NCBI RefSeq assembly: GCF_022846255.1
Contig: NZ_AP025682.1
Strand: one strand, 5' to 3'
DNA from: Escherichia coli
Lineage (GTDB): Bacteria; Pseudomonadota; Gammaproteobacteria; Enterobacterales; Enterobacteriaceae
Length of the DNA: 64,000 nt
Both the position numbers and the translations under genes were made by a program. The number at the start of each line of letters is the position of its first letter. The first letter of the stretch is position 1. The notes under the pieces are model-generated. The model was given only the letters and a program-made list of their open reading frames with translations. It had not been told where the DNA came from and made no database searches. This document shows positions 2,284 through 45,467 of the stretch, piece by piece.

Positions 2284-3010
2284 CGGGCGCTCCTTGCCAG
2301 AATGCCTGGATTAACGCAGTGAGGCAGCCACAGACAATGCCTGCCAGAATGGCGACGGGAATAGAAAATAGCGTTACGCCTGCAAGGGCACCAACTAACG
2401 CTGCGGTAACGCAAAGAGATTGTTTGCGCTGGAAAGAGGCGAGCAGGAAACTCATAAAGAGTGCCGGAAGCATAAAACCTAATGCTGCTTCAACGGCGGG
2501 ATAACCTTGCAGCAAGCCGCTGCCGGAGAATGCCCCTATTACCGTACCAAATACCCACGATGACCATGAACTGAAGGCAATGCCGATCATCCAGTTTTCG
2601 CTCCAGCGGCGATTATTGCGTACCAGTTTTGCGGTTGCGGCGGCAAAAACCTCATCCGTCAGGCCAAACGCCCACAGGGCGGTTTTCGATTTTTGCAGAC
2701 GCTGAATAATACGGCTACGCAGTGACGGGCCATACAAAACATGGCGAACATCCATTGCCATGACGGTCAGTGCAGCAACCCACAAACTACTCCCGGCTGC
2801 CAGCATCGCGGTAATGACGAACTGGCTCGCGCCTGCATAAATGATGCAGGAGAAAAAAACGCTTTCGAGAGGAGAGAATCCCAGACGGGTCGCATTCAGA
2901 CCGAACGCAAAGGCCACCGGAATATAACTAATAACAATCGGTAAACTGTCTTTGCATCCTTCCATGAAGGTCGCCGAACCAGGAGCAGGCTGTGGAGTAG
3001 GGCTTTCCAT
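2273..3010 (-). CDS. ygaZ: L-valine exporter large subunit YgaZ (AzlC family, 245 aa)
   Basis: Translation recognised; polytopic membrane protein upstream of ygaH. Confidence 0.9.
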
Positions 3011-3133
3011 AGAGTGTACGCTTAACGATTGTTAATATTATAAATAGACTGAATGAATATCTTAACCTTATCAGACTGATGGGCTTCTTAACACCCTTAT
3101 AAGTGTAAAGCCACGAAAACGGTTGCTGATTGC

Positions 3134-4318
3134 TTAATTTGCGGCTTCCTGACGATGAAAACCTCGCCACCAGACCAGTAAGTTAACCAGGGCAATCGTC
3201 GCGCCAGCCAGACACACGCCAGCCCAACCGCCATGTTGCCAGGCTGAGGCTGAAATTAGCGAACCAGCGGCACCGCCAATAAAGTAGCTGGTCATGTAAC
3301 CTGCGGTCAGGCGATTACGCGCATCAGGGTGTATTCGATAAATTACCGTCTGGTTAGTGATATGCACGCCCTGCACGGTGAGGTCCAGCACCAGGATGCC
3401 GATAATCAGCGCCAGTACGGAAGTGTGACCAAACCAGATTGCCAGCCATGAAAGTAACAGCAGCAGCAGACCGAAAGTTGTGGTGTGGTGCGATTTGCCC
3501 TTATCGGCAAAACCGCCCGCCGGACGAGCGCCCAACGCTCCGGCAGCTCCCGCAAGCCCAAACAGACCAATTACACCATCGCTGTAGTTAAAAGGTGGAG
3601 CGGCAAGCAAAAAGGCCATTGAGGTCCAGAGAATGCTGAAGTTGGCAAAGGTCAGGCAGCCCAGCAACGCGCGGGTGCGCAGGATTTTATCGCTGATAAA
3701 CATGCTGAAAACAGAACCTAGCAACTGTGGGTAGTTGAGGTGGGTTTCTGATTTCATTTGTGGCAGACCACGCCATAACGCCAGCGCCATCAGTGCCATT
3801 AATACCGAAGCGACCCAAAAGACAGTTCGCCAGCCACCGAGACTCGCCAGCAATCCGGCAACGGTCCGTGCCAGCAAGATCCCCAACAGCAGCCCGCTCA
3901 TAATGGTGCCGACCACTTTGCCGCGTTTGTCCGGTGAAGCCAGCGTCGCTGCCAGCGGAACCAGAATTTGTGCCACGACTGAGAATAAACCGGTTAATGC
4001 CGTACCGAGGAGCATCATCGCCAGCGACTGACTGCTGGCAGTGATTAACATGCCGCCTGCTGCCAGTAAGGTCATCGAGACAATCAGGCGGCGGCGTTCA
4101 AACATATCACCGAGGGGAACAAGAAACAGCAGACCTGCGGCATAGCCCAACTGCGCGGCGGTAACAATAAAGCCTGCCGAACTGGCGGAAAGGGAAAAGT
4201 TACGCGCGATGGTGTCGAGCAATGGCTGGGCGTAATAGTTACTGGCTACCGCCAGACCGGTGGCGATAGACATCAGCACGATCAGCGCCGGGCTAATCTC
4301 ATGATTAGGTTTAGTCAT
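3134..4318 (-). CDS. ygaY: MFS transporter YgaY, intact 394-aa reading frame
   Basis: Uninterrupted ORF of 394 aa with multiple hydrophobic segments; position between ygaZ and proX matches ygaY. Confidence 0.8.
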   Translation of the reverse strand: MTKPNHEISPALIVLMSIATGLAVASNYYAQPLLDTIARNFSLSASSAGFIVTAAQLGYAAGLLFLVPLGDMFERRRLIVSMTLLAAGGMLITASSQSLAMMLLGTALTGLFSVVAQILVPLAATLASPDKRGKVVGTIMSGLLLGILLARTVAGLLASLGGWRTVFWVASVLMALMALALWRGLPQMKSETHLNYPQLLGSVFSMFISDKILRTRALLGCLTFANFSILWTSMAFLLAAPPFNYSDGVIGLFGLAGAAGALGARPAGGFADKGKSHHTTTFGLLLLLLSWLAIWFGHTSVLALIIGILVLDLTVQGVHITNQTVIYRIHPDARNRLTAGYMTSYFIGGAAGSLISASAWQHGGWAGVCLAGATIALVNLLVWWRGFHRQEAAN

Positions 4319-23785: not shown

Positions 23786-24178
23786 AATTAATAACAAATA
23801 ATGTGAGGGATAAGAATTGGGTTGAAAGGAAATGAATAATTAAAACAATATATTAAGTGTGCTTATACTCTTTTTCGAACTGGTGGCATTTGTTTAAATG
23901 CTATTTAAACTGCTTTTCCAGAGTTCAACTTACTGAGTTCCGTGTCGACTAATGTGAGTAAGATCAATCGCATCCAACCTATGTTACTTGATGGAATCGA
24001 TAACAATATTAATGAATATACAGATTCCGGGAAGGCTGGCTATGGGGGCAAATTATTCTCTTTCTGGCAACAGGTAAATAACAGTGACCATTTGTCGAGA
24101 AGCTGATACTAAGCTGAGGGATACTGTATATGTCTGGACTGTAATTGGATGAATTCTATTCAGGGCGGGTCAGGACCA

Positions 24179-24204
24179 ATAAAAAAGCCCGCATCAGCGG
24201 GCTT
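24179..24204 (-). terminator. ssrA intrinsic terminator
   Basis: Minus strand AAAGCCCGC-TGAT-GCGGGCTTTTTTATT, about 130 nt downstream of the tmRNA 3' CCA. Confidence 0.7.
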
Positions 24205-24332
24205 TAATGTCATAGGGAGTCGCGACTCCGTTGCGTATCCTTTTTTGTCTCCTCACCGTCTGGTCGGTGTCCTGCTGAGACTTATAACTTCCTGTTTTTG
24301 TTGGTGTAGTCCTTACACCGTCCAATCATGAT

Positions 24333-24695
24333 TGGTGGAGCTGGCGGGAGTTGAACCCGCGTCCGAAATTCCTACATCCTCGGTACTACATGCTTAGTCA
24401 GTCTTTACATTCGCTTGCCAGCTGCGGACGGACACGCCACTAACAAACTAGCCTGATTAAGTTTTAACGCTTCAACCCCAGGCAGGGCTTCCACGCGATC
24501 TCTTTTGGGTTTGACCTCTCTTGATCCCCGTCCTAAGAGCGGAGGCTAGGGAGAGAGGGCTCTAAGCAGGTTATTAAGCTGCTAAAGCGTAGTTTTCGTC
24601 GTTTGCGACTATTTTTTGCGGCTTTTTACGAGGCCAACCGCCCCTCGGCATGCACCTTGGGTTTCGCAAATCCCGTCGAATCCAGAATCAGCCCC
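24333..24695 (-). ncRNA. ssrA: tmRNA (SsrA, 363 nt)
   Basis: Minus strand runs GGGGCUGAUUCUGGAUUCGACGGG ... GGUUCAACUCCCGCCAGCUCCACCA; tag reading frame 24574-24606 encodes ANDENYALAA. Confidence 0.97.
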
Positions 24696-33853: not shown

Positions 33854-33911
33854 ATGACCTTATGCGACAGAGTTATTAACTGCTGATTGCATTTTCTCCA
33901 GAAATCAGTAA

Positions 33912-41269: not shown

Positions 41270-42430
41270 TCAGGTTGGATCAACAGGCACTACGTTCTCA
41301 CTTGGGTAACAGCCCAATACCTTCATCGAACGGGTGATTTCCCCTAACTCTTTCAATGCTTTTTGCATTTCCGCTGATTCAAGATTGGCCTGAATATCCA
41401 GATAAAACATCTCTTCCCACGGATTACCGTGAATCGGACGTGATTCCAGACGGGTCATAATCAGACTGTGATTGCGCAGTACCAGCAACGCTTCAACCAG
41501 TGCACCAGCTTGTTGTCCGGTCGCCATTAACAACGTCGTTTTCGCCGGAACCTGGTCAGAAACGTTAATGGCTTTACGTGCCAACACCACAAATCGGGTG
41601 AAGTTTTGTCGCTGATTCGCTTCAATACGCTCCAGTACCTGCAAACCGTACAAAGTGCCGCCAGCTTCGCTTCCCAACGCAGCAACATGCGGTGATTTTG
41701 CCTGTGCAACCTTTTCCATTGCCGCAGACGTACTTTCGGTATATTCAATCTTCCAGTGCGGATAACGATTAAGGAATTTGCTGCATTGCTGGAATGGCTG
41801 CGGATGGCTGTAGACCGTATTGATGGCGGATAAATCAGTAGTGCCGGAGACCAACAAACAATGATCGATAGTTAACGTCATCTCGCCAACAATCGACAAA
41901 CTGGTATGTTGCAGCAGATCGTAAACGTCGTTTATGGCACCGGAGCTGGTATTTTCAATCGGTACGACGGCATAGTCGGCCTGGCCGGTTTCCACCTGAT
42001 TAAAAATATCGGCAAATTTGGCGCAGCCACTTTCAATGAATTGCTCAAAGTGACGAGCAGCATACTGGCGCGCCGCAAGATGGGAATAAGAACCTTTGGG
42101 GCCGAGAAAAGCGATGCGTGCTGAGTGCGGATTAATTTTATTGAGATGTTGTTGGAGCAAAGCCTGCTGAGTTAATACGGAATCTTCAATGATGAGCTGG
42201 AACAGGCGAGTAATGTAATGGGCGTCCAGATGGTGCGCTTTACCGAGCGTAATTAATCTTTCCAGCAAATCGCGTTCACGATCAATATCACGTACCGGGC
42301 GATGCGAGAGCAGTTTGGCTTTTCCCACCTCGACGGCCAGTTCGCGTCGCTCTGCCAGTAATGCTAATAATTTTTCATCCAGCGCGCTGATTTTCTCTCG
42401 CAGCGCCAGTAACGGGTTTTCCGATGTCAT
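41270..42430 (-). CDS. pheA: Bifunctional chorismate mutase / prephenate dehydratase PheA (386 aa)
   Basis: Translation recognised; convergent with tyrA. Confidence 0.95.
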
Positions 42431-42454
42431 AGTGTTGCCTTTTTGTTATCAATA

Positions 42455-42482
42455 AAAAAGGCCCCCCGATTTGGGAGGCCTT
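42455..42482 (-). terminator. pheA attenuator (leader terminator)
   Basis: Minus strand AAGGCCTCCC-AAATC-GGGGGGCCTT followed by TTTTTTATT, between pheL and pheA. Confidence 0.8.
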
Positions 42483-42528
42483 ATTGTTCGTCTTCGCATT
42501 CTGTTTCACACGACGAAACGCCTCCCAT

Positions 42529-42576
42529 TCAGGGGAAGGTAAAAAAGAATGCGAAGAAAAACGGTGTGTGTTTCAT
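42529..42576 (-). CDS. pheL: pheA leader peptide PheL (15 aa, 7 Phe codons)
   Basis: Minus strand ATG AAA CAC ACA CCG TTT TTC TTC GCA TTC TTT TTT ACC TTC CCC TGA = [15 protein letters not shown]. Confidence 0.85.
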   Translation of the reverse strand: [15 protein letters not shown]

Positions 42577-42679
42577 GTTTGTTTCCTTAAGTGACTTTAG
42601 TACAGTACCCGTACTGTTTTCACGCTGTCAACAAAAAACGCGCCCGAAGGCGCGTTGGCGATACACTCAATATAAAGGA

Positions 42680-43075
<396 letters not shown>

Positions 43076-43254
43076 TCAAAATGTGTGATGGAAATCTCAT
43101 AATTTTGTCACTTTTTGTCAACGAATCTTTTTTGTGAGAAATCGCAGGAAGAGGTGTTTTTTTACTTGAGGAATATCTCAAAGCGAGCCATATTTGATGA
43201 GATCGATAGTGACTAAATCGCTTCAGTTTCACAACTAACAGAATAAAAAAACGG

Positions 43255-43267: not shown

Positions 43268-44693
43268 TAATGCCAGTCAGTTAAGCAACTGACTGGCTCT
43301 TTTTCGGGGCTGTGGGGTATTTCCAGGGCCTCTCCTTTACCACTCTCGGGAAGGCCCTTTCCCTTCTTGTCGGTAATTTCACAAGTTGTCCCATACTTGC
43401 AAGATCGCGCATCAGCTCCGGTATACGTCCCGGTGAAGCGCCCTGCAATGTCATCAGCATTCTCATCACCATTCCACATGATTCTGAGAAACTCAGTTGA
43501 TTCGGCCAGTAACCTTTCAGATGTTCCGCCATTTTAATCATCTGATATCTCACCAGATTATAAGCCAGTAAGACACCCCACAGCTCTTGCTCCACAAGCT
43601 CCGGTTTTTTACTTCTCAGCGTCAGCCTGCTCAGTTGCATCGTCTGTTTTATCTCCCTGTATCCCAGTTCGATTTCCCAGCGATGACTGTACAGATCCGC
43701 CATTTCTCCTCCGGGGAAGCGCATGGCGTCCGTCATCGACGTCAGCAGATGGCAGACTTTTCCTTTGCGCGTCACGGTCAGCAGGCGGGCTGTCACTTCA
43801 TTTCCCAGTCCCGGCCACTTTTTTCGTGCCTGCGGGCTGGTTTTCAGCTTCACCAGATGATCGCCTTTACCCAGTTTTCTGATCTCTTCATATTGCGCTC
43901 CCTTTCTGAGAGGTATCATCCAGTGGCGGTGTTCTCCCGCCAGGCTCCAGGCATTTAACAGTCCCAGTGAGTAATAACCTTTATCCATTAACGTCAGAGT
44001 GTTATCGCCGGTTTGTTCTATAAGTTGCTCAGCAAGCTCATTTTCGCTGTTCTTCATCGTGCCGAAGGCTGCAGCCGTCAGCAGATGGCTGGTCAGTTCC
44101 ATCTGGCAGACCATTTTGACCTGCGGGTAGAGCGCCGGGTTCCCGGCATGTGTCTGGCGGGGGAAGGCTGCATCGTTCTCTGGTGTATCCGGTGTGCGCC
44201 AGAACACACCATCGATGGCCAGCAGGGTCAGGCCGCACCAGTGCGGATGCGGCGTGGCGTTATGCCAGAGCTGCGCTGTTTTCGTGAACACGCGGCGGAC
44301 AGCCTCACTTCCCAGGCGCTGGCGGGCCTGAATAACGGCACTGGGGGCAACGAAGGGGCGATTGCCCGGCAGCATGATGTCCAGGCGATTCACAATCTGG
44401 TGAAGAGGTTCTTTACGCTCAAGCGCCATGCCAACAATACACCAGACCATCATTTCGAGGGGAAGACGGCGCTTGCGTAGCGTTACAGTACCTGATTCGG
44501 CAAGGCAACGAGAGATGAGTTCGGGGTCGAGGTAATCCCCCAGAGAAGTCAGTGGGTTACGCAGAGAATCGTAACGGGATACCAGATCAAGAGCCTGTCC
44601 AATGTGCATAAAAAAATCCGGAAACAAGTGAGCGTTTCCGGATTCTTACACAGCCACTGGATCGGTCAACTGATCCTTAACTGATCGGCATTA
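43268..44693 (-). mobile_element. Insertion sequence IS4, complete (1426 bp)
   Basis: 18-bp terminal inverted repeats TAATGCCAGTCAGTTAAG / TAATGCCGATCAGTTAAG (16/18), one transposase ORF, 13-bp flanking direct repeats; length and ends match IS4 as I recall it. Confidence 0.9.
43281..44609 (-). CDS. insG: IS4 transposase InsG (442 aa)
   Basis: Translation [19 protein letters not shown]... recognised as IS4 transposase; DDE motif with the Y-x2-R-x3-E-x6-K signature ([13 protein letters not shown]). Confidence 0.9.
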
Positions 44694-44729: not shown

Positions 44730-45467
44730 TTATGTATTGCTGCTGTTTGCGGCGATGATTTTCGCTACTTTTTCAGCTTGCGCATTCATCTGCATCTGAC
44801 GGTATGCATTTTCCATCAGCGGCAGCGCATCACGCGTAGCCTGGGTATCCGGATAGTCGCGCAACATGCCTTCTACGCGGTTAACGACAGCAACCCATGC
44901 ACCACGTTCTGTATAATACTCGGCAACGGAGTATTCATATTTCGCCAGACGATCTTTCAGGAATACCAGACGTTTGGTGGCATCGGTGGTGTACTGACTG
45001 TTCGGATAGCCGCGCACCAGTTTGGAAAAGTCACTAAACGCAGCTCGTGCATGTTGAGGATCGCGATCGCTACGGTCAACGCCAAAGAACCCTTGCAGCG
45101 CACTGTCATCCAGCGCCATATTGGTCAGGCCACGCATGTACATGACATAATCGATATTCGGATGGGTCGGGTTAAGGCGAATAAAACGATCGATGGCAGC
45201 CTGTGCTAACGGCAAATCGGCGTTTTTATAGTAGGCGTAGATGAGATCCAGCTGCACCTGCTGCGAATACGGACCAAACGGATAGCGATTATCTAACGCT
45301 TCCAGTTGCGTTATTGCCTGTCTCCAGTTACCGTCCTGCAGCTTTTGTTGTGCAGTCGCGTAAATTTCATTTGGCGGATTATCAGGTACTTCTTCCTTTG
45401 ACCCCGAGCAACCCGCCAAAAACAGGCTTAGTGTGGCGGCTGCCACCAGATATTTCATGCGCGTCAT
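44730..45467 (-). CDS. bamD: Outer-membrane assembly lipoprotein BamD (YfiO, 245 aa)
   Basis: Lipobox LAGCSG and TPR-like repeats; translation recognised. Confidence 0.95.

Follow-up and report, generated by a model that had tools for sequence, protein, structure and literature searches.

Where the leader peptide of a textbook attenuator differs by a single amino acid from that of Escherichia coli K-12, which of the two carries the change, and does it matter for the gene downstream? The question is raised by the leader open reading frame (ORF) pheL in a stretch of E. coli DNA of 64,000 nucleotides, hereafter the window, which an earlier note had read as starting ATG AAA CAC ACA CCG, with Thr as its fourth residue. 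That reading is exact, as are the coordinates given with it. The ORF runs on the minus strand from an ATG at 42576 to a stop codon at 42531-42529, the interval 42529-42576 including the stop, and the reverse complement of that interval, ATGAAACACACACCGTTTTTCTTCGCATTCTTTTTTACCTTCCCCTGA, translates to a leader peptide of 15 residues. The plus strand of the same interval translates to nonsense, SGEGKKECEEKRCVFH, and was discarded, the ORF being on the minus strand. After the CCG come TTT TTC TTC, GCA, TTC TTT TTT and then, at 42540-42529 (-), ACC TTC CCC TGA, i.e., the ending UUC_CCC_UGA. Seven of the 15 codons, 6-8, 10-12 and 14, specify Phe (FFF-A-FFF-T-F), and the ACA of codon 4 occupies 42567-42565.

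This is a real leader gene, pheL at 42576..42529, and a chance ORF is excluded. The minus strand at 42577-42452 matches the Rfam family RF01859 (Phe_leader) over its full length (model positions 1-125 of 125) with 132.2 bits, the gathering score being 55, and E = 7e-25, and the Shine-Dalgarno motif is seen again as GGAA or GGAT 5′ of the outgroup pheL ORFs considered below. The ORF lies between raiA and pheA in the order raiA - pheL - pheA, and the ATG of pheA, at 42430, is 98 nt past the pheL stop on the same strand. The pheA product matches the Pfam domains PF01817 (CM_2, 2.4e-19) and PF00800 (PDT, 1.3e-62), and all matching genomes annotate the gene after pheL as pheA. A sigma-70 consensus scan of 42380-42760 returned no full pair of -35 and -10 elements; the promoter entered in Table 1 is the one suggested by its -35 hexamer. 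Downstream, folding of 42576-42486 (-) gives the 1:2 hairpin at -31.5 kcal/mol (z = -4.3), and folding of 42530-42468 (-), with segment 1 removed and segment 4 absent, recovers the 2:3 pairing at -23.3 kcal/mol (z = -5.1). The 3:4 terminator stem has 10 pairs, seven of them G-C, and is followed by a T run. As predicted, the 1:2 and 2:3 pairings would be mutually exclusive, with segment 1 overlapping the Phe codons, and the predicted structures reproduce the attenuation model with 1:2, 2:3 and 3:4 pairings that is laid out in Figure 1 of Gurvich et al. 2011 (PMC3082878).

Table 1. Features of the raiA - pheL - pheA region, in window coordinates
Feature	Position	Strand	Basis or remark
raiA	43021-42680	-	Pfam PF02482 (S30AE) match
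raiA intrinsic terminator, stem-loop AACGCGCCTTCGGGCGCGTT then TTTTGTT	42637..42656	-	terminator scan; directly 5′ of the putative pheA promoter
TTGACA, perfect -35 hexamer of the putative pheL-pheA promoter	42626..42631	-	sequence, and a primer published in PMC3082878
pheL Shine-Dalgarno, AAGGA	42584..42588	-	7 nt 5′ of the ATG, read from sequence
pheL leader ORF	42529..42576	-	same 48 nt in 3,564/5,426 complete E. coli genomes
Polymorphic base, second position of codon 4	42566	-	C here (ACA, Thr), T in K-12 (ATA, Ile)
Phe codons of pheL	42561-42553, 42549-42541, 42537-42535	-	sequence
1:2 pause / anti-antiterminator hairpin, Phe-codon segment pairing with GAAACAGAAUGCGAAGACGAAC	42486..42562	-	predicted fold and Rfam consensus
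2:3 antiterminator, GGGAGGC (42527-42521) with GCCUCCC (42478-42472)	42472..42527	-	predicted fold
3:4 attenuator terminator, AAGGCCTCCC-AAATC-GGGGGGCCTT then TTTTTAT	42452..42482; stem-loop 42482-42458	-	terminator scan and fold
pheA, bifunctional chorismate mutase / prephenate dehydratase, 386 aa, the regulated gene	41270..42430	-	Pfam domains

How does this compare with K-12? The alignment with reference pheL that had been proposed was made against the MG1655 record NZ_CM151407.1 over the 321 bp that separate the end of raiA from the beginning of pheA, and 320 of the 321 bases are the same, the sole difference being 42566 in codon 4, where the window has C and K-12 has T. Codon 4 of MG1655 pheL is thus ATA, as the earlier note had it, and the possibility that K-12 also encodes Thr there, which would have undone the claim, is set aside by its Ile; the window lacks the K-12 allele. 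The ATA is borne out a second time by a cloning primer printed in PMC3082878, ATGAAACAC ATACCGTTTTTC, which includes ATACCG and so places ATA in laboratory E. coli, and according to the legend to Figure 2 of the same paper the pheL nucleotide sequence of Shigella flexneri 2a is that of K-12. Over the wider interval from raiA to the start of pheA (window 42380-43170) the window differs from K-12 once in ~700 bp, the corresponding figure for the surrounding 3,571 bp (3.6 kb) being 54 differences (1.5%).

Control by Phe-tRNA-dependent read-through is described as established in K-12 in PMC3082878, with the references cited there. For the window locus the in vivo mechanism, like neutrality, is something we infer, attenuation being carried over from K-12 by way of the identity at 320 of 321 positions. 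RNA polymerase would pause at the 1:2 hairpin and wait there for a ribosome to translate pheL. With plentiful Phe-tRNA the ribosome would reach the UGA, the 3:4 terminator would form and transcription would end before pheA, and with scarce Phe-tRNA the ribosome would stall on the seven Phe codons and mask segment 1, so that segments 2 and 3 could pair as the antiterminator and pheA be transcribed.

Has codon 4 any part in this? It is upstream of all seven Phe codons, and 42566 corresponds to position 12 of the Rfam model, in a 5′ stretch of 15 positions that are unpaired in the consensus structure, the first paired base being position 16, four nt beyond the SNP. Folds of 149 nt for the Thr4 and Ile4 alleles give the same minimum free energy structure, both at -51.7 kcal/mol. 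The earlier note had placed the change outside the Phe-codon run and the attenuator hairpin, and the unpaired model position and the equal predicted folds agree with it. Since codon 4 precedes both the Phe codons and the first paired base, its identity would be no part of sensing or switching. Might it instead act through the peptide, residue 4 of nascent PheL (Thr or Ile) altering termination or the +1 frameshifting at UUC_CCC_UGA? We regard this as highly improbable. The frameshifting experiments described in PMC3082878 found that pheL needs no more than its three wild-type codons ahead of CCC_UGA for high +1 frameshifting, constructs with just those three having restored the wild-type level, and codon 4 would accordingly be uninvolved in that phenotype. 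In the passages of that paper which deal with pheL, moreover, frameshifting is reported to be without influence on pheA expression, residue 4 is not singled out, and variation outside the AUG and the Phe codons is described for the UUC_CCC_UGA enterobacterial group. Nothing known gives residue 4 of PheL a role.

A single-base difference from a reference sequence might also be a sequencing or assembly error, and that the Thr codon is one would have had just this circumstance in its favour. It is hardly credible, and is refuted by a census: an exact search with the 48-nt ORF against 5,426 complete E. coli genomes found the window allele (Thr4, ACA) in 3,564 independent genomes (66%), the same ACA is present in an outgroup Escherichia species, and 1,495 other positions also distinguish the window from K-12. 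The K-12 allele (Ile4, ATA) is in 1,392 of the genomes (26%) and a third, which combines Thr4 with T13I, in 428 (8%), the three together accounting for 5,384 of the 5,426. Thr4 is therefore in at least 3,992 genomes (74%). The full 321 bp is identical to the window in 13 of 40 sampled genome rows, i.e., about a third. A literature search with the two peptide strings (Thr4 and Ile4) found no paper. The Thr4 allele is ordinary, already known variation, annotated in thousands of public genomes.

Some features of the rarer forms deserve mention on their own account. In the examined loci the T13I of the third allele is always accompanied by a T->A change two bases past the stop (TGAATGGG -> TGAAAGGG; locus positions 151-204 and 595-648), which the window lacks; the flanking haplotype is K-12-like. 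Within the 1:2 helix the altered base of codon 13 has a G as its partner, a C-G pair becoming U-G, and the post-stop change is located in a small internal loop. In E. coli PCN061 (locus positions 193-198), which has Ile4, the pheL stop TGA has become AGA, so that the ORF is extended, and the annotation pipeline PGAP treats it as a pseudogene.

On what background is Ile4 found? Genomes were ranked by their identity to K-12 over the 2,571 bp of pheL-pheA-tyrA and 60 were listed at even steps; the ranking stands in place of a tree, and the allele was read by proxy from the PGAP product name, 'phe operon leader peptide' denoting WP_010723158.1 (Ile4). Read in this way, the Ile4 name is attached to all 14 rows with at least 99.9% identity to K-12 and to 15 of the 16 full-length rows with at least 99.2%, the row at 99.2% being Ile4 and that at 99.7% being the T13I allele, and a further, partial-length K-12-like row has Ile4 as well. 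Between 98.9 and 97.7% the name is absent from all 42 rows. The 1,419 genomes at least 99% identical to K-12 over the 2,571 bp are close in number to the 1,392 with the K-12 ORF. In strain HH97, Thr4 sits on a haplotype that is K-12-like in other respects (10 differences in 3,571 bp). Judged from these identities, Ile4 seems essentially to be a marker of a K-12-like haplotype group, almost confined to genomes that are near-identical at pheL-pheA-tyrA.

The outlier is strain E105, which is Ile4 at 97.3% identity and is the only sampled carrier of Ile4 outside the K-12-like haplotype. Its leader is that of K-12, its pheA and especially its tyrA differ, and its flanks are non-K-12; either recombination has made it a mosaic or Ile4 has arisen in it again. 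At positions 2457-3139 it has ~60 differences from K-12 in ~680 bp of tyrA/aroF (~9%), a segment that looks like imported divergent DNA.

Which of the two residues is the older? A scan of one genome per bacterial species, with a back-translated pheL pattern in which codon 4 was free and all other residues were fixed, and which by that design is silent on the variability of other pheL positions, yielded 29 species-representative pheL loci, each 145-161 nt upstream of a pheA orthologue. Thr4 is present in E. albertii (ACT), in Escherichia sp. MOD1-EC7003 of a cryptic clade (ACA) and in Citrobacter amalonaticus (ACC), and also in Pseudenterobacter, Huaxiibacter and Enterobacteriaceae RIT714. Val4 is found in loci titled Phytobacter or, mostly, Enterobacter, together with one metagenome bin. 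Leu4 or Gln4 is seen in the Pantoea and Erwinia loci (again by title), in one metagenome bin and in two of the loci titled Enterobacter. None of the 29 has Ile at codon 4. With K-12 included, the residues found at codon 4 across Enterobacterales are T, V, L, Q and I. The scan, though its pattern matches both the window and K-12, returned no locus from E. coli, E. fergusonii or Salmonella; either the ORFs of these representatives depart from the pattern at other positions or the data for them are incomplete, and the outgroups behind the polarity argument are E. albertii, one Escherichia of a cryptic clade and more distant genera. As Thr4 is in the closer outgroups and Ile4 in none, Thr4 is the ancestral state in Escherichia, and the Ile4 (ATA) of K-12 is a derived C->T transition that became fixed in the K-12-like haplotype group. 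The earlier note had the direction reversed in treating Thr4 as a substitution in the window, which has the ancestral majority allele, K-12 being the variant.

Does it matter which allele a strain has? ATA is, as far as is known, read only by the minor lysidine-modified tRNA-Ile2, and in the 40 annotated K-12 genes of the region it is the third-rarest sense codon, at 3.9 per 1000. A rare ATA might slow the first ribosome and so alter the release of the paused polymerase or the arrival at the Phe codons, the alleles then differing in basal or induced pheA expression. The near-invariance of the rest of the leader region between the window and K-12 adds something to this idea, as does the dependence of basal pheA expression on ribosome behaviour on pheL that is described in PMC3082878. 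However, ACA too belongs to the ten rarest sense codons (6.5 per 1000 in the same genes), which leaves a modest contrast; across Enterobacterales codon 4 is free to vary (T/V/L/Q/I, by many codons); Ile4 follows one haplotype group without recurring, as drift or hitch-hiking predicts; and the predicted structure is unchanged between the alleles. A functional polymorphism is thus unlikely, and its specific form, a shift of the attenuator set point in K-12 by slower, tRNA-Ile2-dependent translation of the early leader, we rate a little lower again. Because the raiA-pheL-pheA junction is unusually conserved, a change there is slightly likelier than average to matter, and for that reason a small kinetic effect of the K-12 ATA is kept at a small probability and put no lower. 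Were there such a shift, the classical attenuation of K-12 pheA would represent a derived state, and most natural E. coli, with Thr4/ACA, would regulate pheA slightly differently.

The description 'probably neutral' that had been given to Thr4 is supported by both alleles being common and by the variety at codon 4 across Enterobacterales. It is, then, very probable that what the window has is a standard E. coli pheL-pheA attenuator with the ancestral and commonest allele (Thr4, ACA), and that the Ile4 of K-12 is derived, with the change between them, to judge from the sequence comparisons, most likely neutral or nearly so.

Thr4 had also been offered as a marker that the window is not K-12 sequence. 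The conclusion stands but the marker is a weak one, as Thr4 signals only that a haplotype is not K-12-like, the K-12-like group being ~26% of genomes. The window is clearly not K-12: local BLAST against 110 kb of MG1655 gave 97.6% identity (1,495 mismatches among 62,232 aligned bases), each co-linear segment being at 96.95-98.25%. This divergence of 2.4%, with the insertion and deletion differences, shows a non-K-12 origin far more strongly than does Thr4. The best match among complete genomes over 30001-55000 is FDAARGOS_1260 at 99.7%, followed by ST95-32 and others at no more than 99.5%.

Between bamD (44730-45467, -) and raiA, at window 43268-44693, there is an IS4 insertion of 1,426 bp, 24-37 nt past the bamD stop, with about 234 nt between it and the raiA ATG downstream. 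It contains an ORF of 448 aa at 43281-44627 (-) with the Pfam domains Nterm_IS4 and DDE_Tnp_1, and the K-12 coordinates overlap by 14 bp at its two junctions, consistent with a target-site duplication. The insertion is annotated in the best-matching genomes too, with the junction 100% matched in strain 2013C-4282; true junction matches to the query are mixed with other IS4 ends, so the count of genomes is ambiguous. Between ffh and rpsP, 126 bp of K-12 (record 3460912-3461037, right after the ffh stop) give way to 14 bp at window 33854-33867, and the K-12 segment may be a repetitive extragenic element that only K-12 has.

A stretch of 32.8 kb in K-12 (3470561-3503389), with the CP4-57 prophage, ypjA, ypjC, a tRNA-Ile gene and an amylase pseudogene, is absent from the window. 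At window 23849-24331, beside the tmRNA at 24333-24695 (-), the glaH/lhgO side lies almost immediately next to ssrA, and that arrangement without the 32.8-kb stretch is in ~1,099 complete genomes at a coverage of at least 80%. The tRNA-Ile gene of the K-12 stretch, which has ypjCB on one side and the amylase pseudogene on the other, bears no gene name in the record; we take it to be ileY, the decoder of ATA. No tRNA-Ile gene was found in the 64-kb window. The co-occurrence in K-12 of this gene and the ATA allele is probably a coincidence of lineage.

The biological weight of all this is very small, since it concerns one probably neutral natural polymorphism. Nevertheless, it is the K-12 reference, and not the window, that has the unusual residue, and 'differs from K-12' should not be taken to mean 'mutated'. 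The codon-4 base is a usable but weak lineage marker, separating the K-12-like group (~26% of complete genomes) from the rest.

Where does the window leader stand among its known relatives? K-12 pheL (RF01859; 'phe operon leader peptide', WP_010723158.1) has the same neighbours, raiA - pheL - pheA - tyrA, the same length, seven Phe codons and UUC_CCC_UGA ending, and identical 1:2, 2:3 and 3:4 segments; it differs in having the derived ATA (Ile) at codon 4 where the window has ACA (Thr). From the third allele, WP_001700969.1, which shares the locus and Thr4, the window differs in lacking the ACC->ATC change at codon 13. To the majority E. coli allele, for which the PGAP name is 'pheA operon leader peptide PheL' and which O157:H7, O26:H11, ST131 and ST95 strains carry, it is identical at 48 of 48 nt. 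With the enterobacterial CCC_UGA pheL group, as Gurvich et al. 2011 (PMC3082878) describe it, the window leader shares the UUC_CCC_UGA end, the runs of Phe codons, the terminator and antiterminator, and pheA downstream; set against that description it shows no difference, codon 4 being among the N-terminal codons that the group lets vary.
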